From assembly GCA_045626925.1 (NCBI GenBank), contig JAZUQZ010000003.1:18526-82525 (forward strand): a stretch of 64,000 nucleotides of DNA. Reading direction: 5' to 3'. Shown piece after piece: positions 21,168 to 42,551 of this stretch (its first letter is position 1; every line of letters starts with the position of its first letter). Position numbers and translations under genes: made by a program. The notes below the pieces were generated by a model, which saw only the letters and a list, made by a program, of their open reading frames with translations, was not told the origin of the DNA and ran no database searches. The DNA comes from Candidatus Aphodoplasma sp. (GTDB taxonomy: Bacteria > Bacillota > Clostridia > UBA1381 > UMGS1253).

Positions 21168-21205
21168 ATACAGCGCACAGGCGCGTTTGAAAGGTGGTAA
21201 CAAAT

Positions 21206-24007
21206 ATGGCATTTGAAAGTGCGGATTTTAAAAATGCAAAAGAAGTACGCACAAAAAAGAGTAAAGCGTCAAAAGCTTTTATTTGGCTTTTATCTGCGGT
21301 GGTGCTGACCTTTATTGTAGGTTTTATCATGTCGATTGTGATAAATTATATAGAGATAAAGGAAATCGGCGCAAATTATGTTGATACATTTTTTATAAAT
21401 ATAAAGGTTCGTTTTATAGCGCAAACAGTGAGCTTTTTTATAGTATTTATCGTGTTTATGATAAACAATCTTGTGCTCAGAGGCATTCTCAAAAAAGAAA
21501 ACGATGACCTTTCGTTTGTATCAAAAATCTGGCCGATGATGATTTTGACATTTGTTATAGCTCTTATTGCAAGCTCATTTATAAGCGACAATGTATACAG
21601 CCGCTTTTTAGCGTTTGCAAATTCGACCGCCTTTAATAAAGTTGACCCTGTATTTATGCAGGATATTGGGTATTATTTATTTATCAGACCATTTATGACA
21701 TCTCTTATTGACAGTATAAAGGTTATTTTAATTATTCAAACGATTTATACTGCCGCTATATATGCATTTTTAAATATGCGAAACGGCATCGATAATTTTG
21801 GTGACATTTTTAAAAACAAAAGTGCGATTACGCACAATATTGTAAATGTATTGCTTGTATTTATAAGCATTGCGATGACTTTTAAATATAACGCAGAGGA
21901 GATTTTGTTTGGCAGTTTTGGGACGCTTGCCGGTGCAGGCTACACCGATATTCATGTGTGGGCTAAATATTACTTTTTTGCGCCATACTTACTTTTGGCG
22001 GTTGTGATTGCAACGATGTTCTTCCTTTTAAGAGGAAAAATAAAAGCCGGCATAATGAGTGTGTTTGTTTTCCCTGCTGCATGGATACTTACAGGATTGA
22101 TTGCGCTTGGGGTGCAGACTTTTGTCGTTGCACCAAATGATGTTGCAGTTGAGGCGGCAAACATTGCAAACAATATTTATATGACGCGTGATGCGTATGG
22201 GCTTGATAAAATAATTGAAGAAGAGTTTTCGATTGATAACACACTAAATAAAACGGACATCGAGCAAAACAGAGAAACGGTCAACAACATAAGAATTATT
22301 GATTATAATGCAAATGTTACGGCGATGAACAAGCTTCAGGGTATAAAACCATACTATACATTTAAAAGCTCGGACATAGTTTCTTACGATATAGGCGGCA
22401 AGCCTGCGCCGGTTGCAATTGGCGCGCGTGAGCTTGATACGGAAAAGCTTGCATCGGAGGCGAGTGACACCTATCTTAATAAAACATACAAATATACACA
22501 TGGTTATGGTATAGCGATGAACCTTATGAATACTGCTACAAAAGAGGGCCAGCCACAGTTTATAGTGCGTGATATTCCTGTCGTATCAGATGAGGGAGTG
22601 GTGGCTATTACACAACCACGCATTTATTATGGGGAGTTTACAAACAATCATGTTATTGTAAACACAAAGCTTAAGGAAATTGATTATTCTGAAGGGCAAA
22701 CAAATGTTGAGTTTTCCTATGACGGAAGTGGGGGCGTGGAGCTTAATTGGTTCAACAAGCTTTTGTTTTCTGTTTTAAAAGGCGATTATAAAATGCTTGT
22801 ATCAAATCAAATTACATCTGAAAGCAAGATTTTGGCAAACAGAAATGTTGTTGCGCGCACACAAAAGGTAGCACCGTTTTTAGAATATGATGAAAACCCA
22901 TATTTGTTAGTTGATGATAGTGGAAAGCTAAAGTGGATAATTGATGCGTATACGACATCGGAGTACTATCCGTATTCGCAAAAATATGGTGAGTACAATT
23001 ATGTAAGAAATAGCATAAAGGTTGTTGTTGATGCATATGACGGAAGTGTAAAGTTTTATATCGTAGACGAAAATGACCCTATTGCTATGACATATAAGAA
23101 AATTTATCCTAATATGTTTGTAAATGAGCCGTTGCCTGATGATTTGAAGCGACACATACGCTATCCTGAAAAGCTATTTAAAATCCAGGCAGAGATGTAT
23201 AAGCAATATCACATAACAGACGCACATGTGTTTTATAACAAAAGCGATATTTGGGATATTGCAAAGGAAAAATATGCTAAAAATGAGAGCCAGTATATTG
23301 AGCCATATTATAACATGATGAAGATTAAGGGCTTTGATGAAAAGGGCGAAAGTCTGCTTTTGACGATGCCTTTTACAATTCAAAACAAAGATTATATTAG
23401 CAGCTGGCTTGCTGCCGGCTCGGATGATAAATATTATGGCAAGCTTGTGCTTTATCGATTCAAAAATGCTGAAAAAAATTCGTATGGAACAATGCAAATG
23501 GAAAACAGAATTGATAATGACCCGACAATATCAAGCCAAATGACGCTTTGGGGCCAGGGTGGTTCATCAGTTGTGCGTGGCAATATGATAGTGATACCGA
23601 TAAAAGATTCACTTTTATATGTTGAGCCGGTATATATCACAACTCAAAATGCTGCATCATTTCCTGAATTAAAGCGCGTTATTGTAGCGTATAAAGAAAA
23701 AATAGTTATGGAGAGTACACTCGAGGAATGCTTTAACAAGCTTTTTGAAAATGGTGTTTCTGATGTGCCGCCTGTGATGGATATTCCACAAGATGAGAAC
23801 AATATCCTAAAGCCGCCTTCGACTGATGTTTATGAGGGAGACGAGGATGCAGGCGCGATTTTGAAAAATATTGTTGATTTGTATGAACAGTATAAAAAGT
23901 TTAATGCTGCAAACGATTATGAGAATGCCGGCAAGGTGATGCGTGATATTGATGCGTATCTTGAGCGCGCAGACGCTTTGCTTAACGGTAAAAAGTCTAT
24001 AAATTAG
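21206..24007 (+). CDS. UPF0182-family large membrane protein
   Basis: ~930 aa. N-terminal ~300 aa has multiple TM helices, followed by a large soluble region. Architecture and recalled motifs fit UPF0182 (COG1615). Start at ATG 21206 after AAAGGTGG. Confidence 0.6.
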   Translation: MAFESADFKNAKEVRTKKSKASKAFIWLLSAVVLTFIVGFIMSIVINYIEIKEIGANYVDTFFINIKVRFIAQTVSFFIVFIVFMINNLVLRGILKKENDDLSFVSKIWPMMILTFVIALIASSFISDNVYSRFLAFANSTAFNKVDPVFMQDIGYYLFIRPFMTSLIDSIKVILIIQTIYTAAIYAFLNMRNGIDNFGDIFKNKSAITHNIVNVLLVFISIAMTFKYNAEEILFGSFGTLAGAGYTDIHVWAKYYFFAPYLLLAVVIATMFFLLRGKIKAGIMSVFVFPAAWILTGLIALGVQTFVVAPNDVAVEAANIANNIYMTRDAYGLDKIIEEEFSIDNTLNKTDIEQNRETVNNIRIIDYNANVTAMNKLQGIKPYYTFKSSDIVSYDIGGKPAPVAIGARELDTEKLASEASDTYLNKTYKYTHGYGIAMNLMNTATKEGQPQFIVRDIPVVSDEGVVAITQPRIYYGEFTNNHVIVNTKLKEIDYSEGQTNVEFSYDGSGGVELNWFNKLLFSVLKGDYKMLVSNQITSESKILANRNVVARTQKVAPFLEYDENPYLLVDDSGKLKWIIDAYTTSEYYPYSQKYGEYNYVRNSIKVVVDAYDGSVKFYIVDENDPIAMTYKKIYPNMFVNEPLPDDLKRHIRYPEKLFKIQAEMYKQYHITDAHVFYNKSDIWDIAKEKYAKNESQYIEPYYNMMKIKGFDEKGESLLLTMPFTIQNKDYISSWLAAGSDDKYYGKLVLYRFKNAEKNSYGTMQMENRIDNDPTISSQMTLWGQGGSSVVRGNMIVIPIKDSLLYVEPVYITTQNAASFPELKRVIVAYKEKIVMESTLEECFNKLFENGVSDVPPVMDIPQDENNILKPPSTDVYEGDEDAGAILKNIVDLYEQYKKFNAANDYENAGKVMRDIDAYLERADALLNGKKSIN

Positions 24008-29021: not shown

Positions 29022-29298
29022 GTGCCCGAAAAACAAAAGCGTGCTTATTATAAAGCAAAAAATTAACTAAAAAAATCATACATAATACAACAAATCAATA
29101 TTATATCTAAAGGATATGTATATCTGTTTATAATCAGAAGCTTGTTTTATGTAAAAATTGCACATAAAAAATAGTAAATATTGTTTATATTTTAGGCAGG
29201 AAAAACAAATAAGAAATAGAATATTGCTAATAAGAGCTAAAATACGCTTATTAACATATTTTGTTCTGAGATAAATAGTATTAGGAGGAATGATAAGC

Positions 29299-31359
29299 AT
29301 GGGAAAGTTTAAGGCGGAGAAAATTAGAAATATTTGTTTTGCCGGACATGGAAGGTCGGGTAAAACGACACTGTGTGAGGCTATGTTATTTTATAGTGGC
29401 GGAACAGACCGCTTTGGAAGTGTTGCAGATGGTACTTCTGTTATGGACTATGACCCGGAAGAAATTAAGAGAAATTTCTCCATAAGCACAACGGTTGCTC
29501 CCGTTGAATATAAGGAATACAAAATAAATTTGATAGACACTCCCGGATATTTTGATTTTGTTGGTGGCGTATGCGAGGGTATGAAGGGCGCGGATAGCGT
29601 TGTAATAACCGTAAGTGGAAAAACGGGCGTCGGCGTTGGAACAGAGAATGTATTTCGCAGTGCAGTAAAGGCAAAAAAGCCTATTGCTATGTTTATAACA
29701 AAGCTTGAAAATGAACATTCCGATTATGACGGGATTGTTGAGCAAATTAAGAGCAAGTTTGGTTCGGCCGTTGTTCCGTTTACAATTCCGATTATGAAGG
29801 ATGGTAAGGCGTGGGGTTTTGCAGATGTAATAAGCCAAAAAGCATATAGCTATGACGGTTTCAAGGCTTCCCCTACGGATATGCCTGATGATATTGCGGC
29901 AAAGGTTTCTTCTGCGCGTGATATATTGTTTGAGCAGATTGCTGAAACAGATGAGGCACTTATGGAGAAGTATTTTGATTCGATACCATTTACTGACCAG
30001 GAGATTTGTGAAGGAATTAAAAATGGATTAAAAGAAAGCATTGTTGTGCCTGTTTTTGCGGGCGAGCTTTCGAGTGGTGCAGGTGTAAGCTTGTTTATGG
30101 ATGCAGTTATTTCATATATGCCTGCAGCTGATGAAGTTGAAACGATTTTAGCAACAGATGCAAAAACCGAAGAAATTGTTGAACTTAAAACATCAGCTTC
30201 GGAGGACCTTGTTGCTATTGTATTTAAAACCGTTGCTGACCCATATGTTGGCAAGCTTTCGATTTTCCGTGTAATTTCGGGAACAATGAAGAGTGATACA
30301 ACAGTTTATAATCCGTCAAAGGACGCAAATGAAAAAATTGGTCGTCTATACACAATAAAAGGTAAAAAGCAGATAGAAACAGACAGTGTCGAAGCGGGAG
30401 ATGTTGGTGCAGTTACAAAGCTTGCAGTTACAGCTACGGGCGACACCTTGTGCAAGGCGGGCAAAAATGTTGTTGTTGAGCCGATAGAGTATCCAGCGCC
30501 TGTGATTTCTTTGGCGGTACTTCCTGTTGCAAAGGGCGACGAGGAAAAAATTCATAGCGGTCTTGTAAAGCTTCGTGAGGAGGACCCGACATTTAAAGTA
30601 TCAAACAATCACGAAACGCACCAAATGATTATCGAGGGACAAGGCGAGCAGCACATAGATGTTATTGTTACAAAGCTTAAGACAAAATATGGTGTTGATG
30701 TAAAGCTTGAAGAGCCGATTGTACCATATCGCGAGGCTATTAAAGGCCGTGCAAAGGTTGAAGGCAAACATAAAAAGCAGTCGGGCGGTCATGGGCAATA
30801 TGGTCATGTTGTGATTGAGTTTGAGCCAGGCAGCGGCGAAGGACTTGAGTTTGCTGAAAATGTATTTGGCGGCAGTGTGCCAAAGAATTATTTCCCTGCA
30901 GTTGAAAAAGGTTTGAGCGATTGTATGGAGCATGGTGTTTTGGCAGGGTATCCGGTTGTAAGCCTTAAAGCAACGCTGTTAGATGGCTCGTACCATCCGG
31001 TAGACTCATCAGAAATGGCGTTCAAGGTTGCGGCAGGACTTGCGTTTAAAACGGGACTTGCACAAGCGAATCCAATACTTCTTGAGCCAATAGGTTATTT
31101 AAAGGTAAGTGTACCTGAGATGCTTATGGGTGATATTATAGGCGATATTAACAAGCGCCGTGGACGAATTCTTGGTATGGGCAGCGGTGAGGTTGAGGCA
31201 GAGGTTCCTGTTGCAGAGATGTTTAAGTATGCTACTGACCTTCGCTCTATGACACAGGGTAAGGGAAGCTTTTCGTTCGACTTTGTTCGCTATGAAGAAG
31301 CACCAAAAAATGTGGTAGATAAGGTAGTTCTTGACGCAAAGTCCAAACAAAGTGAATAA
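29299..31359 (+). CDS. Elongation factor G paralogue (EF-G2-like translational GTPase)
   Basis: G1 AGHGRSGKTTL (not the canonical AHIDAGKT), DTPGYFDF, TKLE; full EF-G domain II-V layout. Monocistronic, with its own terminator. Confidence 0.8.
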   Translation: MGKFKAEKIRNICFAGHGRSGKTTLCEAMLFYSGGTDRFGSVADGTSVMDYDPEEIKRNFSISTTVAPVEYKEYKINLIDTPGYFDFVGGVCEGMKGADSVVITVSGKTGVGVGTENVFRSAVKAKKPIAMFITKLENEHSDYDGIVEQIKSKFGSAVVPFTIPIMKDGKAWGFADVISQKAYSYDGFKASPTDMPDDIAAKVSSARDILFEQIAETDEALMEKYFDSIPFTDQEICEGIKNGLKESIVVPVFAGELSSGAGVSLFMDAVISYMPAADEVETILATDAKTEEIVELKTSASEDLVAIVFKTVADPYVGKLSIFRVISGTMKSDTTVYNPSKDANEKIGRLYTIKGKKQIETDSVEAGDVGAVTKLAVTATGDTLCKAGKNVVVEPIEYPAPVISLAVLPVAKGDEEKIHSGLVKLREEDPTFKVSNNHETHQMIIEGQGEQHIDVIVTKLKTKYGVDVKLEEPIVPYREAIKGRAKVEGKHKKQSGGHGQYGHVVIEFEPGSGEGLEFAENVFGGSVPKNYFPAVEKGLSDCMEHGVLAGYPVVSLKATLLDGSYHPVDSSEMAFKVAAGLAFKTGLAQANPILLEPIGYLKVSVPEMLMGDIIGDINKRRGRILGMGSGEVEAEVPVAEMFKYATDLRSMTQGKGSFSFDFVRYEEAPKNVVDKVVLDAKSKQSE

Positions 31360-32701: not shown

Positions 32702-32731
32702 AGCCGTGTCAGGTTGACACGGCTTTTTTTA
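32702..32731. terminator. Bidirectional terminator shared by the ABC ATPase gene and the RHH gene
   Basis: AGCCGTGTCA (32702-32711) / TGACACGGCT (32715-32724), with an A-run before and a T7 run after. The RHH stop codon lies inside the T-run. Confidence 0.85.
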
Positions 32732-32875
32732 TTTTTCTGAAAGTTCAATGTTTCGCCTTAAAACAAGATTTATATACTGCGAAAATGGTCTGTCATCTTC
32801 TTCTGCAAGAATGCGTGTTTTTTCTGCTACATCTTCATCTAATGTGATACTAACTTTAATTTTTAATGGTTTCAT
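32729..32875 (-). CDS. Ribbon-helix-helix (CopG/Arc-like) small DNA-binding protein, 48 aa (absent from the ORF track)
   Basis: Hand translation: MKPLKIKVSITLDEDVAEKTRILAEEDDRPFSQYINLVLRRNIELSEK. N-terminal beta strand, then two helices. SD GAGGTGAG lies 6 nt upstream of the ATG at 32875. Confidence 0.7.
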   Translation of the reverse strand: MKPLKIKVSITLDEDVAEKTRILAEEDDRPFSQYINLVLRRNIELSEK

Positions 32876-32970
32876 ACTTGCTCACCTCGAAACAATAGTA
32901 TCATATATTATTACTTTATATTGACAAATCATACTAAGTAGTATAAAGTATGTATAGGGAGGTGAACAAA

Positions 32971-33195
32971 ATGACTGTAAACAGAGAGAAAATGTATAAG
33001 CATATAGGTAAAAGAATATATGTAGCGCGTCGTATACAGGGCATAACACCAAAAATTATAGAAAAGCGTACAGGCATAACAAGAGAGGAGCTTTATGATA
33101 TAGAAACAGGGAAAAGGGAAATAAGCGTTTATGAGCTTTTTTTGCTTGCCCGTTGTATTCATCTATCGTCGGACACACTTCTTGCACTTATGTAG
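32971..33195 (+). CDS. XRE-family helix-turn-helix transcriptional regulator (74 aa)
   Basis: HTH_3-like core IGKRIYVARRIQGITPKIIEKRTGITREELYDIETGKREISVYELFLLARCI. SD GGGAGGTGA before ATG 32971. Confidence 0.8.
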   Translation: MTVNREKMYKHIGKRIYVARRIQGITPKIIEKRTGITREELYDIETGKREISVYELFLLARCIHLSSDTLLALM

Positions 33196-33270
33196 AGAAT
33201 GTTTTATGTAACCCAAAATAATCCTTTCGCGTATAATATAGTGAAGTTATATACGAAGGGAGGTTATTAA

Positions 33271-33576
33271 ATGGCATATTATAATACAACATCAAACGCT
33301 GTAACATCATCATCTGCTCAAGAAGCGTGTGAAGCAAGAGAAGGCAGATGTGTAAAAACTGTTTGCGCAGGTATAGTGCTTGGCTTTTTGGTTGCCTTGC
33401 TTACACTGACAATCGGAGTTATATTGGGGGCATATTTTTCTACTACATTTCTAAGCTCAATTGCTGCGATAATAGTATTTGCGGTGGTATTACTTGTTCT
33501 TATAGCAGTAATTCTCATATATGCAGGCTGCATTGCATCGAAAAGGTGTCGTTGCAGAAGAGATAATTGTTGTTAA
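33271..33576 (+). CDS. Small Cys-rich membrane protein (2 predicted TM helices), unknown function
   Basis: SD GGGAGG 7 nt before the ATG. Two long hydrophobic segments. N-terminal CEAREGRCVKTVC and C-terminal CIASKRCRCRRDNCC. Has its own terminator. Confidence 0.7.
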   Translation: MAYYNTTSNAVTSSSAQEACEAREGRCVKTVCAGIVLGFLVALLTLTIGVILGAYFSTTFLSSIAAIIVFAVVLLVLIAVILIYAGCIASKRCRCRRDNCC

Positions 33577-33627: not shown

Positions 33628-34821
33628 TTATTTTGTAGAGGTTAAAAACTTGCGTACATTTTCATCAAAGCTTGATAAATCGTCATCCGATGGTTTAAAG
33701 TTTACTCTAAATCCCTCTCCATACACATCAAAGCGCATTTGTGAAAGACGCTGGCACAATGCGCCCACCGCCTCGCCGCTCCAACCGTACGAACCGAATA
33801 CAAACACAGGCTTTTTCGCACAGTTTATAGCATCAATAGCGCTTATCGTATCCCATACAGGTTTTAGCGCGTCGCGATTTATTGTTGGTGAGCCAATCAT
33901 CAGTATGTCACATTCATTTGCGAGTGCGTTGATTTTGGTATTGTCGTGCTTTATGATATCGCACATCTGCACATCAAAACCCATCTCGCATGCAAGCTCG
34001 TACGCCTTTTGAGCAAGTATTCTAGTATATCCGTATGCCGAAACATATAATATCGCGACAGTAGGCTTTTCTTTCTTTGCGCTCTGTGACCACGATTTAT
34101 ATTGTTCGATTACGGTATCAATCGAGTGCTTTGTGAGTATTGGGCCGTGGCTTGTGCACACAAAATCCTTTTCAAGTTCTGCTACTTTTTCAATCCCGTT
34201 TAAAACATGTGTTTTAAATGGGGAAAAGATTGCATCATAATAAAATTTTAGTGAATATTCATATGCGTCTTCTCTTGCGATAAGATTGTCAAACATACGC
34301 GGCTCACAGTAGTGGCATCCAAACATATCGCACGAAAACAGCGTCTTATCCTCGTTTATATATGTGAACATAGAGTCAGGCCAATGCAAAAACGGAGCAA
34401 TTATAAACTTTAGTGTTTTCCCACCAAGCTCAAGTGTGTCGCCATCTTTTACAATTTTTGATTTAAAGGTGGTGTTTGAAATGGACGATGCATACTTAAT
34501 ACCGGCAGTCGTCGCTACAAGCTCAATATTCGGATTTAGTGCCAAAAGCTTCTCAAGGCTTCCCGTATGGTCAGGCTCGGTATGATTTAGTATAAGATAA
34601 TCTATTTTTGAAACATCTGTTATTGATAAAATATTTTCAAGATATTCGTCAAAATATTTTGCGTGTACTGTTTCAATAAGTGCACATTTGTCGTTACCTT
34701 TTACAAGGTATGCATTATATGATGTGCCGTATTTTGTCTCCATAATAATGTCAAAAACGCGCAGTGACGGATTTAATACACCGACGGAATATATATTTTC
34801 ACAAACCTTTATGACTGCCAT
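33628..34821 (-). CDS. fprA: Flavodiiron protein (FprA-type A flavoprotein; metallo-beta-lactamase-like plus flavodoxin domains)
   Basis: Di-iron motif LNHTEPDHTG; C-terminal flavodoxin-like domain (VAILYVSAYGYT...GSPTINRD). Start at ATG 34821 after GGAGGA. The ORF-track N-extension is rejected. Confidence 0.9.
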   Translation of the reverse strand: MAVIKVCENIYSVGVLNPSLRVFDIIMETKYGTSYNAYLVKGNDKCALIETVHAKYFDEYLENILSITDVSKIDYLILNHTEPDHTGSLEKLLALNPNIELVATTAGIKYASSISNTTFKSKIVKDGDTLELGGKTLKFIIAPFLHWPDSMFTYINEDKTLFSCDMFGCHYCEPRMFDNLIAREDAYEYSLKFYYDAIFSPFKTHVLNGIEKVAELEKDFVCTSHGPILTKHSIDTVIEQYKSWSQSAKKEKPTVAILYVSAYGYTRILAQKAYELACEMGFDVQMCDIIKHDNTKINALANECDILMIGSPTINRDALKPVWDTISAIDAINCAKKPVFVFGSYGWSGEAVGALCQRLSQMRFDVYGEGFRVNFKPSDDDLSSFDENVRKFLTSTK

Positions 34822-34878
34822 AATAATCCTCCAAAAAGTAAAATTTATATTAAACTCAAAATCGATAACACACAAACG

Positions 34879-34906
34879 GCAGCAGATGGTATATACCATC
34901 TGCTGC
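34879..34906 (-). promoter_or_regulatory. Perfect 28-nt palindrome / intercistronic hairpin between rubredoxin and fprA
   Basis: GCAGCAGATGGTATATACCATCTGCTGC is fully self-complementary (12-bp stem). Only a weak U-rich tail (CGUUUGUGUGUU) follows on the minus strand. Confidence 0.5.
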
Positions 34907-34912
34907 TAAAGT

Positions 34913-35071
34913 TTAGGCTTTTTCGAAAGCGTCTTTTCCAAGACCGCATACAGGACATGTCCAATCCTCTGGGATATCCTCAAAAGCCGTTCCAGGCGCA
35001 ATATCACTATCAGCATCGCCAATCTCTGGGTCATAGATATATCCACAAGCACTGCATACATATTTATCCAT
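34913..35071 (-). CDS. Rubredoxin (52 aa; absent from the ORF track)
   Basis: Hand translation: [52 protein letters not shown]. Two CxxCG knuckles. SD GGGAGGTGA. Confidence 0.92.
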
Positions 35072-35223: not shown

Positions 35224-35252
35224 TTTACAAAATAAGATTTTTATGATATATT
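35224..35252 (+). promoter_or_regulatory. Candidate promoter for the OLE-oapA-dxs-tlyA transcript
   Basis: TTTACA (35224-35229), 17-nt spacer, extended -10 TGaTATATT (35244-35252). Confidence 0.5.
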
Positions 35253-35298
35253 TTAGTTGAATATGATAGTGTTTTATAAAGTAGGCGGCATATAAAAT

Positions 35299-35907
35299 AC
35301 GGTGGCGCAGTATTCTAGTCAGTTCTATCTATTCCCAAGACGGGCCTAAAAATCCGTTTAAGGGCATATCGATGAAGTTTCTGGTGCTTGCTTTGAACGC
35401 CCAGTTCGGGGTTGGTGCTGGAAGTTAAGGTTTCGGGGCGGTCCGCAATGGCATGTGGGTGCCGAACCCTGTTACCGTGGAGACCTATACTTGTGGTTGC
35501 CAATGGATGTGGCAGAAGTCACATCTAAGTAGCTACGACTTAGGATAAAACCTGCATATCGGTGCTTTTTGTGCTGGGTGTAGAGTAGCCTGCCTTGAGT
35601 GGGAAAAGTCGGGATAACGGACAGACAGATGCGTGTTGGCCAATATGCGTTTGTTATTGCTGTTTGAAATTCGTTCTGCAAAAGAGGCTAAGAATAGATG
35701 TGACTGTAGAGGAAACCTCCTAGACTGTTGCTTCGCTGGCTTGCAAGGGATTGAAATACGGACTAAGTGGCAATCAGGTCATATATATGGCAACATATGT
35801 ATAAGGTGCTTTAAAGGGAAACCGCCGTTTTGGCGACAATTCGGCAGCACTTTGGGAAAACCTACCTGACCTAAAGCCGTAAAATTTACTTTGTGGGTTG
35901 CCACCGT
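35299..35907 (+). ncRNA. ole: OLE (ornate, large, extremophilic) RNA
   Basis: A ~609-nt stretch with no SD-led ORF, visibly G+C-richer than the AT-rich flanks. A closing helix pairs ACGGTGGC (35299-35306) with GCCACCGT (35900-35907). Several local hairpins are present, e.g. CTAAGT/ACTTAG at 35525-35543. The stretch is followed by a small multi-TM protein, then dxs and tlyA, which is the conserved OLE locus order. Confidence 0.8.
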
Positions 35908-35951
35908 AAGTTATATGCTGCTTACATATAGTTTTTGGAGTTGATTTTAAA

Positions 35952-36557
35952 TTGGGAAAGCGTCAAAACCTAAAGGTAAAGGCTGCAGGACAAAATATAA
36001 AGGTTAGTAATAAATGGACATTATTTGTAACAGCGCTGGCATTTGTTCTTACGGTTGCGATGAGTGTAATTTCGACAGGAGCGGAAGGGCTTGGGCTTTT
36101 TAGTGCCATTTGTGTGCTGCTTTTAATCGTAATCCTTGGCATTTTATTTGATATAATAGGTATGGCTGTATCGACGGCGAGCGAGGAACCATTTCATGCG
36201 ATGGCGGCAAAAAAAATCCATGGTGCAAAGGAAAGCGTGACAATTATTCGCAGTGCCCAACAGATTTCAAGCGTATGTAACGATGTAATAGGTGATATAG
36301 CGGGTATTATAAGTGGTGCAATGACAACGGCAATTGTTGTTGCTATATGTTCAAATACAAAGCAGAATGCTACACTTTTAAACCTTGTTTTTGCCGGCGT
36401 TGTCGCAGCACTTATGATTGGCGGCAAAGCTGCGGGCAAGGGCATAGCTATGAAAAACAATAACACTATTGTGTTTATAATAGGCAAGCTTGTTTATGTA
36501 TTTAAAAAGCTATTTTTTATTAAAGCTAAAACAAAGAAAAACAAAAGACAGGTGTAA
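35952..36557 (+). CDS. oapA: OLE-associated membrane protein OapA-like (small multi-TM protein)
   Basis: ~200 aa with about four hydrophobic helices and a basic C-terminal tail. Located immediately 3' of the OLE-like RNA and 5' of dxs. TTG start. Confidence 0.7.
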   Translation: MGKRQNLKVKAAGQNIKVSNKWTLFVTALAFVLTVAMSVISTGAEGLGLFSAICVLLLIVILGILFDIIGMAVSTASEEPFHAMAAKKIHGAKESVTIIRSAQQISSVCNDVIGDIAGIISGAMTTAIVVAICSNTKQNATLLNLVFAGVVAALMIGGKAAGKGIAMKNNNTIVFIIGKLVYVFKKLFFIKAKTKKNKRQV

Positions 36558-36559
36558 CG

Positions 36560-38449
36560 ATGAATAGCATACTTGATGAGTATAATTTTCCAATAGATTT
36601 AAAAGCGATGAATGCAGACGAGCTTTCTGCATTGTGTGGTAAAATACGCGCTTTTTTAATTGAAGCGGTGTCAAAAACAGGGGGTCACCTTGCATCAAAT
36701 CTCGGTGTAGTAGAGCTTACAGTAGCACTTCACCGAGTTTTTAATATGCCTACCGACAAGATTGTGTTTGATGTAGGACACCAATCATATGTGCATAAAA
36801 TCTTATCAGGTCGCAAGGATATGTTCGATACATTGCGTCAGGAAAATGGTCTTTCAGGCTTTCCGAAAACACAAGAAAGCAAGTACGATTCATTTAATAC
36901 AGGACATAGCTCGACCTCTGTATCAGCGGCGCTTGGTCTTGCTCGTGCAAGGGATTTAAAGGGTCAGAAGCATAAAGTGATTGCGCTTATTGGTGATGGT
37001 GCACTTACGGGCGGTCTTGCATATGAGGCTATATGTGATGCCGGAAATGCAAAAAATGATTTGATTGTTATACTAAATGATAATGAGATGAGCGTAAGTA
37101 AAAATGTTGGCGGTATGAGTGAGTATCTTTCAAAAATTCGTACACGCCCGTCATATTTTAAGATAAAATCAGTTACAGAGCGCACGCTTGGCAAGGTTCC
37201 TTTTGGTAAGACAATAAGCTCGTTTTTAAAATGGTTTAAAGAAGGCATCAAGCAGATGCTTATGCAACAAAATATATTTGAAGACCTCGGCTTTACTTAT
37301 CTTGGGCCAGTAAATGGACACGACATACACAAGGTATCGGCGATGCTTGAATATGCAAAAAACACAAAGGGCCCTGTACTTGTGCATGTATGCACAAAAA
37401 AAGGACATGGCTATAAGCCTGCAGAAACAAGGCCACAGGCATTTCATGGGATATCGCGTTTTGATACTGTGTCAGGTAATTTGTTAAAAAAGAAGCTTAC
37501 GGCCGATTATTCGGCGATTATGGGGCGCCATTTGGTGCGCATTGCAAAAGAAAATGAAAGCGTTGTTGCGATAAGTCCGGCAATGACTCTTGGAAGTGGA
37601 CTAAAAACATATGCACGCACACTACCGAAACGCTTTTTCGATGTTGGAATATGCGAAGGGCATGCTGTGACGAGCGCTGCAGGTCTTGCAATAAGTGGGT
37701 TTGTACCTGTTGTTTGTATATATTCCTCGTTTTTACAGAGGGCATATGACCAGATAGTGCACGATGTCGCTATGCAAAATCTTCATGTTGTTTTTTGTAT
37801 AGATAGGGCAGGGGTTGTTGGTGAGGACGGCGAAACACACCAGGGCGTATTTGATATTGCATTTATGCGCCAGATTCCTAATATGTCGATTTTGGCACCA
37901 TCGTGTTTTTATGAGCTTGAGCATATGTTAAAGTATGCTATAAATGAGCATCGCGGACCGATATGCATACGATATCCGCGCGGCGCAATGCAGTATACAG
38001 GCGAAAGGTTTGATTTTAGTTTTGGCAAGAGTCATATTGTGCACGAGGGAAACGATGTTACAATTATTGCAGTAGGAAACCTTTTAGAAGCGGCAACAAA
38101 CGCAGCAAAACAGCTTGAACAAAAGGGTGTAAATGCAGAGGTAATAAACCTTGGGACAATAAAGCCGCTTGATGAAGAAACGATTATAAAATCTGTTAAA
38201 AAGACAAATGCAGTTTTGACACTTGAGGACGGTATAATAGAGGGCGGTATAGGAGAGCAAATCGGTGCAATTTTGCAGAAAAACAATATAGATGCGGTTG
38301 TTGAAAATCGTGGATATGATAAATTTGTAGCACAAGCAAAGGTCAGTTCGATACATCAAAAATATGGTCTTGATGATAGGGGTATATTTGATTGGGCTGT
38401 ATCTGCTGTTGAAAAAAAGAGAGGTTATAACTTTGGCGAAAAAGCTTAG
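36560..38449 (+). CDS. dxs: 1-deoxy-D-xylulose-5-phosphate synthase
   Basis: GHSSTS, ThDP motif GDGALTGGLAYEA...NDN, transketolase-like pyrimidine-binding and C-terminal domains, 629 aa. Confidence 0.95.
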   Translation: MNSILDEYNFPIDLKAMNADELSALCGKIRAFLIEAVSKTGGHLASNLGVVELTVALHRVFNMPTDKIVFDVGHQSYVHKILSGRKDMFDTLRQENGLSGFPKTQESKYDSFNTGHSSTSVSAALGLARARDLKGQKHKVIALIGDGALTGGLAYEAICDAGNAKNDLIVILNDNEMSVSKNVGGMSEYLSKIRTRPSYFKIKSVTERTLGKVPFGKTISSFLKWFKEGIKQMLMQQNIFEDLGFTYLGPVNGHDIHKVSAMLEYAKNTKGPVLVHVCTKKGHGYKPAETRPQAFHGISRFDTVSGNLLKKKLTADYSAIMGRHLVRIAKENESVVAISPAMTLGSGLKTYARTLPKRFFDVGICEGHAVTSAAGLAISGFVPVVCIYSSFLQRAYDQIVHDVAMQNLHVVFCIDRAGVVGEDGETHQGVFDIAFMRQIPNMSILAPSCFYELEHMLKYAINEHRGPICIRYPRGAMQYTGERFDFSFGKSHIVHEGNDVTIIAVGNLLEAATNAAKQLEQKGVNAEVINLGTIKPLDEETIIKSVKKTNAVLTLEDGIIEGGIGEQIGAILQKNNIDAVVENRGYDKFVAQAKVSSIHQKYGLDDRGIFDWAVSAVEKKRGYNFGEKA

Positions 38450-39248
38450 AGCTGATGAATTTTTAGTGCGTCACGCGCTTGCTGATGATATAGTTCATGC
38501 GCGAGCACTTATTATGAGTGGAGTCGTGTATATAGGTGAGCAAAGATGTGATACATCGGGACAGATGCTCGACGAAGGCACATATGTAGAGGTGCGTGAT
38601 AAAAACAGAAAATATGTGAGTCGCGGCGGATTAAAGCTTGAAAAAGCGCTTAGTGAATTTGGGCTTGATTTAAATGGTGTAGTCGCGATGGATATTGGTG
38701 CATCAACGGGTGGCTTTACCGATTGCATGCTCATAAATGGAGCAAAAAAGGTATATAGCGTCGATGTCGGTTATGGCCAGCTTGCGTGGAAATTGCGCAG
38801 TGATAGCCGTGTTGTGAATATGGAAAGGACGAATGTTCGCTTTTTGAGTGCTGAGAATCTTGATGAGATGATTGATTTTATATCTGTGGATGTTTCATTT
38901 ATTTCGCTTGCACTCATTTTGCCGGTTATGCGCGACATTATGTCACAGAACGGTGAAGCAGTAGTTCTTGTGAAGCCACAGTTTGAAGCAAAACGCGACC
39001 AAGTAGGTGACAAAGGGGTTGTAACTGATAGAGATGTTCATACAGAGGTTATAAAAAATTGTATTGATTATGCTACTAAAAACAACTTTGATGTGTGTGC
39101 GTTGACATATTCGCCGATAAAAGGGCCGGAGGGCAATATAGAGTATCTTATGCATTTGCAGCGCGGAGATGGCAGTGTAAAAATAAATGAGGATGAAATT
39201 TTAAAAGCTGTAAATGAGTCGCACGAAGCGGTGCTTACGCGCCATTAG
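38433..39248 (+). CDS. tlyA: TlyA-family rRNA 2'-O-methyltransferase (hemolysin A-like)
   Basis: N-terminal S4 domain (RADEFLVRHALADD), FtsJ-type SAM motif DIGASTGGFTD. TTG 38433 after AGAGAGG overlaps the dxs end by 17 nt. Confidence 0.85.
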   Translation: MAKKLRADEFLVRHALADDIVHARALIMSGVVYIGEQRCDTSGQMLDEGTYVEVRDKNRKYVSRGGLKLEKALSEFGLDLNGVVAMDIGASTGGFTDCMLINGAKKVYSVDVGYGQLAWKLRSDSRVVNMERTNVRFLSAENLDEMIDFISVDVSFISLALILPVMRDIMSQNGEAVVLVKPQFEAKRDQVGDKGVVTDRDVHTEVIKNCIDYATKNNFDVCALTYSPIKGPEGNIEYLMHLQRGDGSVKINEDEILKAVNESHEAVLTRH

Positions 39249-39289: not shown

Positions 39290-39499
39290 ATGTATTCACC
39301 GGATATTGAACCAAAATGCGCATTATGTCAAATGGGGGAGCCACTTCCGGGCAATAAAGAGGTTGTGTGCGACAAATATGGCGTTGTGCCATATGATTAT
39401 GTGTGTAAAAAATATAAATATGATATATTTAAAAAGAAGGTAAGAAGGAAAAACGGACTTGATGGACAATTCAGTGATGACGATTTTTCGATTGAATAG
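39290..39499 (+). CDS. Small conserved-looking Cys-containing hypothetical protein (69 aa)
   Basis: SD GGGGCGGGAG. Four Cys (CALC...C...C), basic middle, acidic tail. No family recognised. Confidence 0.55.
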   Translation: MYSPDIEPKCALCQMGEPLPGNKEVVCDKYGVVPYDYVCKKYKYDIFKKKVRRKNGLDGQFSDDDFSIE

Positions 39500-41570: not shown

Positions 41571-42551
41571 TTATTCCCACTCGATGGTTGCCGGAGCTTT
41601 TGGGCTAAGGTCATAAAGCACACGACATACACCGCCAACTTCGTTTAAAATTCTGTCCGCAATTTTCTTTAAAATTGCCCAGTCAATTTCCGGCACAGTA
41701 GCGCTCATAGCGTCAACAGTATTGACCGCACGGATAATTACAGGCCAATCAAATACGCGCTTTCCGTCGCGCACACCTGTCGAACGAAAATCAGGCACAA
41801 CAGTAAAGAATTGCCAAACCTTGTCCGTAAGACCTGCTATATCAAACTCTTCGCGCAAAATTGCATCCGATTCACGAAGTGCCTCCAAACGCTCGCGAGT
41901 AATTGCCCCAAGGCAACGCACCCCAAGACCTGGTCCCGGGAATGGCTGACGGTCGACCATTTCGACCGGCAAACCCAACGCCTTGCCGACTACTCTTACT
42001 TCGTCTTTGTATAAAAGCTTTACCGGTTCAACAAGTTCAAACTGCATATCTTCCGGCAAACCGCCGACATTGTGATGTGCTTTTACGCCGTCACTTTCAA
42101 GTATGTCGGGATAAATCGTGCCTTGTGCAAGAAAAGATATCCCCTCAAGTTTGCTTGCTTCTTCGTCGAATACTTTTATAAATTCTCCGCCTATAATTTT
42201 GCGTTTTGTTTCAGGCTCTTCAACATCTTTTAAAAGCTCTAAAAATCGGTCTGTTGCATCGATATAAATAAGATTTGCATCAAGCTTGTTTCTAAAAACT
42301 TCTACAACATTTTCACTTTCGCCTTTGCGCATCAAGCCGTGGTTTACATGCACACAAACGAGCTGTTTTCCAATTGCTTTAATCAAAAGAGCAGCAACAA
42401 CAGACGAATCGACGCCACCCGATAGGGCCAAAAGCACCTTTTTGTCGCCGACCTGGTCACGAACAATTTTGACCTGCTCATCAATAAACTGATTTGCAAG
42501 TGCTTCTGTGGTAATGCGTTGCATACTTTCTGGACGGATATTTGAATTCAT
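41571..42551 (-). CDS. guaA: GMP synthase ATP-pyrophosphatase/dimerisation subunit only (no glutamine amidotransferase domain)
   Basis: PP-loop SGGVDSSV near residue 45. Canonical GuaA C-terminus ...PATIEWE. Only 326 aa. The upstream neighbour is ddh, 31 nt away, leaving no room for a GATase domain. Confidence 0.85.
   Translation of the reverse strand: MNSNIRPESMQRITTEALANQFIDEQVKIVRDQVGDKKVLLALSGGVDSSVVAALLIKAIGKQLVCVHVNHGLMRKGESENVVEVFRNKLDANLIYIDATDRFLELLKDVEEPETKRKIIGGEFIKVFDEEASKLEGISFLAQGTIYPDILESDGVKAHHNVGGLPEDMQFELVEPVKLLYKDEVRVVGKALGLPVEMVDRQPFPGPGLGVRCLGAITRERLEALRESDAILREEFDIAGLTDKVWQFFTVVPDFRSTGVRDGKRVFDWPVIIRAVNTVDAMSATVPEIDWAILKKIADRILNEVGGVCRVLYDLSPKAPATIEWE

Follow-up and report, generated by a model that had tools for sequence, protein, structure and literature searches.

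A probable full-length OLE RNA gene with a bulge-less P13 hairpin upstream of oapA, dxs and tlyA in an uncultured Bacillota lineage

Identity of the RNA in the rubredoxin-oapA gap

What occupies the 880-bp gap between a rubredoxin gene and the gene for a ~200-aa membrane protein in an uncultured anaerobic Clostridia-like Bacillota? No long ORF is present between positions 35071 and 35952 of the window, by which we mean the whole 64-kb stretch of DNA analyzed here, and the initial annotation had read the gap as a ~610-nt structured non-coding RNA, namely OLE (ornate, large, extremophilic) RNA. A search with the Rfam covariance model for OLE (RF01071), which had been suggested as a check, bore out this identification. 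The model aligned untruncated over its entire length (1-616 of 616) to the plus strand with a score of 476 bits (E 1.4e-136), compared to a gathering score of 50 bits, and OLE was the sole Rfam family matched in the whole 64 kb. Judging from sequence, we put the probability at roughly 95% that the plus-strand core at 35299-35907 is a functional full-length OLE RNA gene heading an ole-oapA-dxs-tlyA cluster (Table 1).

OLE RNAs are defined by a length of ~600 nt, ~25 helices, ~25% of nucleotides conserved above 97%, and an anaerobic or extremophilic Bacillota host. In an alignment with 71 other OLEs, 170 columns are conserved at 97% or more, and the window sequence matches 168 of these, along with 218 of the 225 columns conserved at 90% or more. 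Position 35756 is an A, compared to G in 71/71 other aligned OLEs. The host fits the expected range of anaerobic or extremophilic Bacillota, and genes for PFOR, rubredoxin, a flavodiiron protein, MurT/GatD and an SLH protein are present in the window. The G+C enrichment that had been pointed out for the central ~609 nt was also evident, with values of 0.42-0.58 within 35300-35900 versus 0.19-0.22 in the upstream spacer and ~0.36 downstream.

OLE RNA itself is already known, having been described in 2006. Rfam curates a model of it, and over 2,800 representatives have been reported from Bacillota (PMC11332333); the copy here is a textbook full-length one. As a discovery the locus is minor for this reason, and its value lies in annotation, where it would otherwise appear as a blank intergenic stretch with the gene for a hypothetical membrane protein downstream. 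Six independent metagenome copies, 99.8-100% identical across the region, carry public gene calls that leave this stretch blank, just as the initial annotation had anticipated for protein-centric pipelines. Within OLE, these copies are polymorphic at one position only, 35445 (G/A), where the pair with U35456 is preserved as either G-U or A-U.

The gap does contain three small ORFs of 62, 69 and 78 aa, at 35315-35503 (minus strand), 35472-35681 (minus) and 35633-35869 (plus). Translated searches with these gave partial similarity in related loci, which could mean that one of them encodes a small protein and that the conservation of the gap is that of a coding sequence. The translated matches covered only parts of each ORF (47/62, 33/69 and 44/78 residues) and coincided with the most conserved RNA blocks, and the ORFs lie on both strands, overlap each other and are ignored by gene callers. 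Reading the sequence upstream of the three ORFs revealed no GGAGG-like site, in agreement with the earlier statement that the gap holds no Shine-Dalgarno-led ORF, and substitutions across the region preserve pairs rather than codons. We consider the chance of a coding gene here negligible, leaving OLE RNA as the occupant of the gap.

Relatives of this OLE were found in genome collections and metagenomes. The closest among the matches listed was a fragment from a "Clostridia bacterium" MAG (L010; 92% over 198 nt), and the best full-length OLE among the genome-collection matches listed had ~72% identity. A metagenome locus, L127, carries an OLE that is 79% identical to that of the window and scores 485 bits. 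When metagenomes were scanned for OapA, one relative had 68% identity and the others at most 48%.

Table 1. Features of the ole-oapA-dxs-tlyA region, in window coordinates.
Feature	Position	Strand	Description and basis
Rubredoxin	34913-35071	-	ORF bounding the gap
Candidate sigma-70-type promoter	35224-35252	+	TTTACA-17-TATATT, TG before the -10; consensus scan, 10/12
OLE RNA gene	35286-35920	+	Extent of RF01071 match, 635 nt
OLE structured core, P1 to P1	35299-35907	+	609 nt
P1, 5' strand	35299-35306	+	ACGGUGGC; exact complement of 35900-35907
Invariant 5' block	35307-35322	+	GCAGUAUUCUAGUCAG; exact 16-mer search of genome contigs, at least 120 OLE loci
P3/P3.1 long-range helix, 5' strand	35320-35334	+	MFE; 5 + 9 bp with 35692-35706 around a 1-nt mismatch
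P4 hairpin	35339-35358	+	GACGGG-CCUAAAAA-UCCGUU; model pairs, 96% paired; A-rich loop
J4a/5 joining strand	35366-35377	+	AUAUCGAUGAAG; family consensus; palindrome AUCGAU
P5/P5.1 20-bp hairpin	35378-35424	+	Loop GCCCA at 35399-35403; covariation
P6/P6.1	35429-35476	+	Inner hairpin CCGCA-AUGGCA-UGUGG; covariation; loop invariant in A1
P7 17-bp stem	35484-35544	+	Model pairs; both-sided changes in 16/17 pairs
P8 13-bp hairpin	35552-35583	+	91% paired; both-sided changes in 11/13 pairs
P9 long three-part arm	35592-35688	+	Loop UGGCCA; model pairs; proximal helices 88-95% paired
P3/P3.1 long-range helix, 3' strand	35692-35706	+	MFE and covariation
Hairpin GAGG-AAA-CCUC	35709-35719	+	100% paired; 3/3 pairs changed on both sides
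3' domain ("domain 2")	35738-35899	+	Helices 86-99% paired, most pairs changed on both sides
Outer helices of 3' domain	35738-35748/35889-35899, 35757-35761/35877-35881	+	Covariation
P12.2	35774-35779/35864-35869	+	Covariation
P13	35781-35802	+	AUAUAUAUG-GCAA-CAUAUGUAU; GNRA loop; 9 bp unbroken, without the 1-nt 5' bulge
P14	35803-35810/35846-35853	+	Covariation
P14.1	35824-35832/35837-35845	+	Loop GCGA; covariation
P1, 3' strand	35900-35907	+	GCCACCGU; exact complement of 35299-35306
oapA ribosome-binding site	35938-35941	+	GGAG; read from sequence, 10 nt before the start codon
oapA	35952-36557	+	201 aa, TTG start, 45 nt after P1
dxs	36560-38449	+	1-deoxy-D-xylulose-5-phosphate synthase; TIGR00204, 763 bits
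tlyA family	38388-39248	+	rRNA 2'-O-methyltransferase; TIGR00478, 235 bits; start per public gene calls

Conserved helices of the 5' and central domains

The window sequence forms standard pairs at 144 of the 158 pairs of the RF01071 model. Analysis of covariation across related genomes, which the initial annotation had also proposed, gave a score of 0.515 for 22 helices in 72 OLE sequences, compared to 0.207 after shuffling (0/500 shuffles as high) and 0.05-0.15 in slid controls (0.115-0.146 for the 22-helix set). Across the same 72 sequences, 87.1% of cells were paired, versus 69.8% when shuffled. The minimum free energy (MFE) of the plus strand was -222.1 kcal/mol against -187.4 +/- 6.0 kcal/mol for shuffles (z -5.78; 0/20 shuffles as good), and the minus strand had a z of -0.82. 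Compared to L127, the nearest relative, the window differs at 58 pairs, of which 41 are still paired, 20 of these through double-sided changes.

The two ends of the RNA are closed by P1, the 8-bp terminal helix that had been claimed from exact complementarity. It is 93.2% paired in the 72 sequences, with both-sided changes in 7/8 pairs, showing that P1 is a selected helix rather than a chance match. The Rfam consensus structure does not draw P1. Directly downstream is the 5' block GCAGUAUUCUAGUCAG, whose invariance in our OLE alignment A1 is circular because A1 was seeded with the same 16-mer. We take UCUAG within this block (35314-35318) to pair with CUAGA (35720-35724) as a putative P2. This pairing occurs in the MFE structure and is 88% paired in the alignment, but both strands are invariant in sequence, so covariation neither supports nor opposes it. 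In the long-range P3/P3.1 helix, all nine pairs of 35326-35334/35692-35700 have changed on both sides across the 72 sequences. The name P3 and the proposal that this helix spans the membrane come from PMC12265935, and the numbering given to it here is a presumed one, after the descriptions in the text of the papers.

Several loops and joining strands correspond to elements with assigned contacts in studied OLEs. The A-rich loop of P4 (CCUAAAAA, 35345-35352) has a UAAAA core that is invariant in A1, and the P4 A-rich loop is a dimer contact in cryo-EM structures (PMC12265935). P5/P5.1 is 96.4% paired with both-sided changes in 13/20 pairs, and the CCCA of its loop is invariant. The AUGGCA loop of P6.1 (35448-35453) contains a GGC complementary to the GCC of the P5.1 loop, the kissing contact in the dimer. 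A third loop, that of P9, has the palindrome GGCC at 35638-35641, described as a symmetric kissing loop of the dimer (PMC12286853). The putative dimerization loops of P4, P5.1/P6.1 and P9 match the family consensus, with most positions invariant in A1. The distal parts of P9 were only 47-74% paired, in a region that was poorly aligned by MAFFT.

The joining strand J4a/5 has two reported functions, since its AUCGAU lies near the mapped OapA site and it contributes a kink-turn strand bound by OapC (PMC9723947, PMC12265935, PMC12286853). Kink-turn strands AUCGAUGAAG (35368-35377), GUUAAGG (35424-35430) and CCGUGGAGACC all match the consensus, and a pair is possible between C35370 and G35429, which correspond to C85-G144 of studied species. 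At the level of sequence the putative OapC kink-turn strands, J4a/5 with J5/6 or J6/7, are intact, and so is the GCGA loop of P14.1.

Two local hairpins had been singled out in the initial annotation. The GAGG-AAA-CCUC hairpin stood up well, being fully paired in the family and covarying (Table 1). For the other, at 35525-35543 (CUAAG...CUUAG), the complementarity is real but its place in the conserved fold is not, as its bases form the 3' strand of 35484-35501/35528-35544 in P7. Both the family model and the MFE structure pair these bases elsewhere, and we dropped this hairpin as a structural element. Within the OLE family the length of distal P7 varies greatly, and its extension in the window (35502-35527) is lineage-specific, with a GAUGUG/CACAUC hairpin in the MFE structure.

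This architecture is that of the studied full-length OLEs. The RNAs of Halalkalibacterium halodurans, Clostridium acetobutylicum and Clostridium botulinum, with cryo-EM structures for both Clostridium species, share P1-P9, P12.2, P13, P14 and P14.1 with the window. They have the same invariant blocks, kink-turn strands and dimer loops (A-rich P4, GCCCA, AUGGCA and GGCC), and likewise an anaerobic Bacillota host with oapA directly downstream followed by dxs and tlyA. The OLE of the window differs from them in its bulge-less P13, the A at 35756 and the lineage-specific extension of P7.

The 3' domain and an unbroken P13

Helix names in the 3' domain are after PMC7936274, and the nested helices of the domain enclose P13, P14, P14.1 and the GGGAAAACC element. 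To survey P13, 129 OLE hairpins were anchored on their loops and folded under constraint. A single 5' bulge was present in 108/129, and only three hairpins had no bulge, namely those of the window, L127 and L177. The bulge-less sequence was the same in six independent metagenome assemblies.

The P13 bulge has been reported as critical for binding of the protein OapB. The window retains the GCAA loop of the OapB site and lacks the single-nucleotide bulge, and since this canonical determinant is missing, OapB is probably not bound in the known way, or is unused, in this lineage. Such a site is not universal, as published OLE variants are without it and OapB is found in only ~60% of OLE species (PMC11332333). 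No genes for OapB, OapC (L7Ae family), bS21 or MpfA were found in the 64-kb window, where 47 small intergenic ORFs were inspected by eye and ~55 larger ones were searched with Pfam.

Published OLE variants show that neither OapB nor OapC is indispensable for an OLE particle (PMC11332333). Variant 1 resembles the window in having no canonical OapB determinant in P13, but its P7-P9 are shortened and the end of P13 is often truncated, whereas in the window P7, P8 and P9 are of full size and P13 is complete, GNRA loop included. Variant 2 is without P7 and P8, both of which are present here. Assignment to either variant is ruled out by the full-size P7, P8 and P9, and because P7 and P8 are present the RNA is of the "full-length" type as defined in PMC11332333, with the bulge alone removed.

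A less favorable reading of the same features is that the locus is a decaying OLE pseudogene no longer under selection. The missing bulge, the A at 35756 where all others have G, and the 14 of 158 model pairs that are non-standard could each be taken as damage. The bulge loss and the 35756 A are both common to L127, whose OLE scores higher than that of the window, and are therefore fixed traits of the lineage; most stem differences from L127 still pair, and the P13 change itself yields a perfect helix. Retention of nearly all near-invariant columns and an intact oapA with every invariant residue further argue against decay, and we see only a very slight chance that the gene has lost its function.

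With the gene taken as functional, the missing P13 bulge and the A at 35756 together suggest that the particle may differ from the one that has been studied. A specific form of this idea is that the full-length OLEs of the window and L127, and independently that of L177, have dispensed with canonical OapB recognition and have a 3' domain that is folded or recognized differently. We regard this as rather unlikely as it stands, but if true, these RNAs would be natural "bulge-minus" full-length OLEs for dissecting the roles of OapB and domain 2. The locus in any case adds a data point on the biochemical role of OLE, namely a full-length RNA with a bulge-less P13 from a lineage represented solely in metagenomes.

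OapA, the gene cluster and a possible role

The ~200-aa multi-transmembrane protein encoded downstream had been proposed to be the OLE partner OapA, and the evidence agrees with this. In 65/67 other loci, including cultured Bacillaceae, the ORF that comes first downstream of OLE encodes a homologue (phmmer E 1e-28 to 1e-48), and the OLE 5' motif was found upstream of 54/65 metagenome OapA homologues. The DxxxD motif, called distinctive of OapA (PMC11332333), is present as D111-V-I-G-D115. Hydropathy peaks at residues 23-41, 47-65, 116-134 and 140-158 correspond to four hydrophobic helices, and are followed by an amphipathic stretch at 172-190 and a basic C-terminal tail, with 6 K/R in residues 1-21 and 11 in 160-201. 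Identity to homologues in alignment A2 was 29-41%, and seven residues were invariant in 56 OapA sequences (D67, D111, G114, D115, G122, K159 and K163), including both Asp of the motif, the two positions that are altered in the PM1 mutant (PMC7936274). The identical protein is encoded on 8 public contigs.

In line with published work (PMC11332333), OapA also has a weak likeness to the transmembrane domain of the MpfA/CorB/CNNM (DUF21) family of Mg2+ exporters. Pfam CNNM (PF01595), which has a cut-off of 28.4 bits, gave it a score of 20.6 bits, and 40/56 OapA homologues matched the same model with a best E of 6e-9. No NCBIfam model matched OapA, and since the Pfam match is sub-threshold the protein would be annotated as hypothetical. 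A profile of 56 sequences detected no related PDB chain, even at E 10. In published structure predictions OapA superimposes on CorB (PDB 7M1U), and the occurrence of MpfA in genomes is anticorrelated with that of OLE (PMC11332333). In contrast to the exporters, OapA consists of the membrane domain only (~200 aa), where it has four helices instead of three. CBS and CorC domains are absent from it, and it carries the DxxxD motif, which CNNM domains are without.

The genes dxs and tlyA follow oapA in the same orientation, as the initial annotation had stated, with dxs starting 2 nt past the oapA stop codon. At least 120 OLE loci were recovered in total; among the 120 listed, a dxs homologue was present in the fetched segment of 70 and tlyA was present in 55. 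The longest ORF for tlyA starts at 38364. Upstream of OLE the window has a divergent rubredoxin gene and a flavodiiron protein gene, and none of the 120 loci listed has rubredoxin and flavodiiron genes near OLE. The cluster is therefore probably short, consisting of ole-oapA-dxs-tlyA with its own promoter. The candidate promoter in Table 1 lies ~47 nt upstream of P1 and is a pattern match only, as the region contained fewer promoter-like sites than shuffles did. By eye, L127 has a TTGACA-17-TATTAT upstream of its OLE.

This arrangement would also suit a cis-acting 5' leader, such as a riboswitch or attenuator of the oapA-dxs-tlyA mRNA, in place of a separate RNA particle. The RNA lies directly 5' of oapA on the same strand, downstream of a promoter-like site and with no plus-strand terminator-like site between 35907 and 35952, and the H. 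halodurans cluster is one polycistronic transcript (PMC12265935). Co-transcription is equally compatible with a role in trans, and members of the OLE family are documented to be abundant, processed, protein-bound and membrane-localized (PMC12265935, PMC7936274). At 609 nt, with ~25 helices and conserved loops for intermolecular dimer contacts, the RNA by far exceeds any known leader, and the region matches no Rfam family besides OLE. We give the leader a slight chance, and favor an RNA that acts as its own particle.

By analogy with the family, this OLE likely functions in a dimeric, membrane-bound RNA-protein particle for stress and Mg2+ tolerance. The initial annotation had stated that cells losing the OLE particle become sensitive to short-chain alcohols, cold and Mg2+, and that the biochemical role is unresolved, both of which agree with PMC7936274 and PMC12265935. 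Later literature describes the RNA as a dimer, proposes that one of its helices spans the membrane, and names OapC and bS21 as further partners. Carrying over results from H. halodurans and two Clostridium species, the RNA would be transcribed with oapA and then processed, and would dimerize through the A-rich loop of P4, the kissing loops of P5.1 and P6.1, and the palindromic GGCC loop of P9. OapA dimers would bind palindromic sites near P2 and P4a and tether OLE to the membrane, with the cooperative 2:1 OapA binding again transferred from other species. The P3 helix may cross the bilayer, in a model that was proposed from partial cryo-EM maps. Expression, processing, dimerization, membrane location and OapA binding in this organism are thus all predicted by extension from other species.

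A more speculative mechanism, drawn from PMC12265935, PMC12286853, PMC11332333, PMC9723947 and PMC7936274, is that OLE is the regulatory and scaffolding part of a particle for divalent-cation (Mg2+) transport and stress sensing. OapA would form a CNNM-like pore, and the RNA would replace the cytoplasmic CBS and CorC domains of MpfA/CorB-type exporters, tying the particle to its other partners, among them OapC (at the kink-turn) and the ribosomal protein bS21. We think this the likeliest mechanism but hold it tentatively, at somewhat less than even odds; other proposed roles for OLE are as a ribozyme or a c-di-AMP synthase (PMC11332333).

Among other RNAs, GOLLD, ROOL and raiA resemble OLE in being large, highly structured, found by comparative genomics and of unresolved function, and GOLLD, ROOL and OLE all form homo-oligomers (PMC12286853). 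None of the three has a sequence or structure relationship to OLE, and only OLE was matched in the window. GOLLD and ROOL are phage-associated nanocages, with no protein partner reported for ROOL, whereas OLE is chromosomal and forms a membrane-associated dimer that has a membrane protein dedicated to it.

Identity of the structured RNA

OLE (ornate, large, extremophilic) RNA was the only Rfam family above threshold in the 64-kb window. The RF01071 covariance model matched over all 616 of its positions at 476 bits (E-value 1.4e-136; gathering score 50), and 144 of the 158 pairs in the mapped structure are standard. The initial annotation had proposed a ~610-nt OLE RNA and named an Rfam search and covariation across related genomes as checks; both supported it, and its observation and its interpretation were correct. 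The locus pairs an OLE RNA gene with its oapA gene in the operon setting typical of the family. The RNA is already known, a standard representative of a class described long ago.

Long ORFs are absent between the rubredoxin gene and the next coding sequence. The only three ORFs there (62-78 aa) overlap on both strands and have no ribosome-binding sites in the sequence as read, in line with the earlier claim that no Shine-Dalgarno-led ORF occupies this gap. The G+C enrichment reported for its centre was also seen (0.42-0.58 vs 0.19-0.22 in the upstream spacer). Folded as RNA, the plus strand of 35299-35907 reached -222.1 kcal/mol, compared to -187.4 +/- 6.0 for dinucleotide shuffles (z -5.78), whereas the minus strand gave z -0.82, so the predicted structure is real and strand-specific.

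Searching one genome per species for the exact 16-mer GCAGTATTCTAGTCAG found at least 120 loci, mostly in Bacillota (Clostridia, Bacilli) with a few metagenome-assembled genomes (MAGs) labelled as other phyla. We aligned 71 complete OLEs extracted from related loci with that of the window and counted pairs from the Rfam structure plus the terminal helix of the initial annotation. Standard pairs filled 87.1% of cells vs 69.8% after shuffling, and in 135 of 166 pairs both partners had changed. Covariation scored 0.515 vs 0.207 for shuffles (0/500 as high), and sliding partners by 1-3 columns gave 0.115-0.146. The 8-bp terminal helix, P1, is absent from the drawn Rfam consensus structure; its pairing reaches 93% in the alignment, and 7/8 pairs change on both sides. 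The minimum-energy fold also predicted a long-range helix whose main part covaries at 9/9 pairs and which, by the text descriptions in PMC12265935 from which the numbering is taken, is P3/P3.1. Two local hairpins had been given as examples: GAGG-AAA-CCUC at 35709-35719 stands as a conserved element, while 35525-35543 was rejected, its bases forming the 3' strand of a longer helix. Of 170 columns with conservation of 97% or more across the other OLEs, the window agrees with 168.

The exact 5' motif also occurs in MAGs labelled Actinomycetota, Deltaproteobacteria, Woesearchaeota and Fibrobacter (loci L057, L073, L076, L093, L104, L062), which is consistent with a published remark that non-Bacillota hits are probably binning errors or gene transfer.

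Features of the OLE locus and other genes in the window
Feature	Position	Strand	Description
UPF0182-family protein	21194-24007	+	937 aa, membrane protein, 730 bits
EF-G-family protein	29290-31359	+	five domains
Small cluster	32729-33576		48-aa CopG-like ribbon-helix-helix ORF (-), 81-aa HTH_3 regulator (+), 101-aa hydrophobic protein (+)
Rubredoxin + flavodiiron protein	33628-35071	-	rubredoxin at 34913-35071
Promoter-like site	35224-35252		TTTACA-17-TATATT with TG; consensus match only
RF01071 match	35286-35920	+	OLE RNA
P1	35299-35306 / 35900-35907	+	ACGGUGGC complements GCCACCGU exactly
P3/P3.1 (by descriptions)	35320-35334 / 35692-35706	+	long-range helix
P13	35781-35802 (L127:2800-2819)	+	AUAUAUAUG-GCAA-CAUAUGUAU, nine uninterrupted pairs, GNRA loop
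oapA	35952-36557	+	201 aa, TTG start, GGAG 10 nt upstream
Cys-rich ORF	39290-39499	+	69 aa, no Pfam match
GMP synthase protein	41571-42551	-	326 aa

OapA and conservation of the locus

The ~200-aa multi-transmembrane protein previously named as OapA, the membrane partner of OLE, proved to be a homologue of the ORF that comes first after OLE in 65/67 loci (E 1e-28 to 1e-48). Its hydropathy profile has four segments of transmembrane length, and its termini are basic; D67, D111, G114, D115, G122, K159 and K163 are invariant in a 56-sequence alignment. D111-x-x-x-D115 is the DxxxD motif described as distinctive of OapA; the two aspartates of this motif are altered in the PM1 mutant (PMC11332333, PMC7936274). 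Pfam CNNM scored 20.6 bits, under its threshold of 28.4, and is matched by 40 of the 56 homologues, which is the published pattern; NCBIfam models and PDB searched by sequence gave no match. Conversely, of 65 metagenome loci encoding an OapA relative, 54 have the OLE 5' motif no more than 1.1 kb upstream, and five of the motif-less loci checked contain all or part of an OLE by Rfam.

The gene order OLE-oapA-dxs-tlyA also held: dxs starts 2 nt past oapA and tlyA follows, with no terminator-like site on the plus strand between OLE and oapA. Among the at least 120 matches listed, dxs lies beside OLE in 70/120 loci and tlyA in 55/120.

Eight public metagenome contigs encode an identical OapA, and the six retrieved are 99.5-100% identical to the window. 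Public gene calls leave the OLE region of all six empty, as expected from the earlier remark that protein-centric annotation normally misses OLE; the practical value here is proper annotation of such a blank locus. The sole OLE polymorphism among these copies, at 35445 in P6.1 (G in the window, A in two contigs, L122 and L125), changes the pairing with U35456 from G-U to A-U. The nearest relative found, metagenome locus L127, has a 79% identical OLE (485 bits) and a 68% identical OapA. Fifty-eight pairs differ between the two RNAs; 41 still pair, 20 of them via changes on both sides. These retained pairs and the pair-preserving polymorphism therefore show that OLE RNA is under structural selection in this lineage, and we rejected the reading that the locus is a remnant.

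Structural departures and proposed role

At the sequence level, the A-rich P4 loop, the GCCCA loop of P5.1, the AUGGCA loop of P6.1 and the GCGA loop of P14.1 are intact, as are the GGCC palindrome of the P9 loop, a dimer contact in cryo-EM structures (PMC12286853, PMC12265935), and the three strands (J4a/5, J5/6 and J6/7) of the kink-turn that OapC binds (PMC9723947). P7, P8 and P9 are full size, which places the RNA in the 'full-length' type and excludes variants 1 and 2 of PMC11332333.

The departures lie in the 3' domain. In the literature, the P13 stem carries a single-nucleotide bulge whose conservation is high and which is critical to the binding of OapB (PMC7936274). When P13 was folded from a loop anchor in all 129 OLEs collected, 108 had exactly one 5' bulge, and only three (the window, L127 and a third locus, L177) had none. 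This minor variation adds to the record a rare full-length OLE whose P13 has no bulge. In addition, 35756, a single-stranded, invariant position, is A in the window and L127 and G in all 71 other aligned OLEs; nearby, G to A at 35758 is matched by a compensatory C to U change at 35880. Genes for OapB, OapC and MpfA are absent from the 64-kb window, and OapB is present in only ~60% of OLE-bearing species (PMC11332333). The simplest reading of these sequences is that this lineage may not use OapB in the known way.

By analogy with other species, OLE RNA would be co-transcribed, then processed, and form a homodimer; OapA dimers would bind it and hold it at the membrane, with P3 possibly crossing the bilayer. 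In those species OLE helps cells to tolerate short-chain alcohols, cold and excess Mg2+ and to manage on poor carbon sources (PMC7936274, PMC10898510, PMC12265935), and the RNA described here may share this role. The mechanism we favour, at about one chance in three, is that a CNNM-like divalent-cation transporter has OLE RNA as its regulatory and scaffolding component. In this model the RNA would take the place of the CBS and CorC domains found in MpfA-type proteins; across genomes, these proteins anticorrelate with OLE (PMC11332333). Roles as a ribozyme or in signalling have also been proposed.

Genomic surroundings

The rubredoxin and flavodiiron protein genes, which function in oxygen or NO detoxification, and OLE point away from each other on either side of a 227-nt AT-rich spacer, a neighbourhood seen in none of the 120 other OLE loci among the matches listed. 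In the adjacent small cluster, the hydrophobic protein has a Cys-rich tail and a faint MgtE-like match. The Cys-rich ORF after tlyA has a 57%-identical copy directly after dxs in L127 (5507-5716), where the fetched segment gave no tlyA match, and occurs in 0/120 genome OLE loci among the matches listed. Its product may be a small protein that is specific to this lineage and associated with the OLE cluster.

The remainder of the window (G+C 39.3%) is an ordinary anaerobic Bacillota chromosome, with pyr genes, plsX-acpP-rnc, smc-ftsY, secDF, PFOR, MurT/GatD and an SLH protein. The GMP synthase protein has only the ATP-pyrophosphatase and C-terminal domains; the missing glutamine amidotransferase domain suggests an enzyme split into two subunits. 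The EF-G-family protein, encoded directly after secD/secF and away from ribosomal-protein operons, is probably an EF-G paralogue. The UPF0182 gene lies just downstream of smc and ftsY, ahead of an aminotransferase gene.
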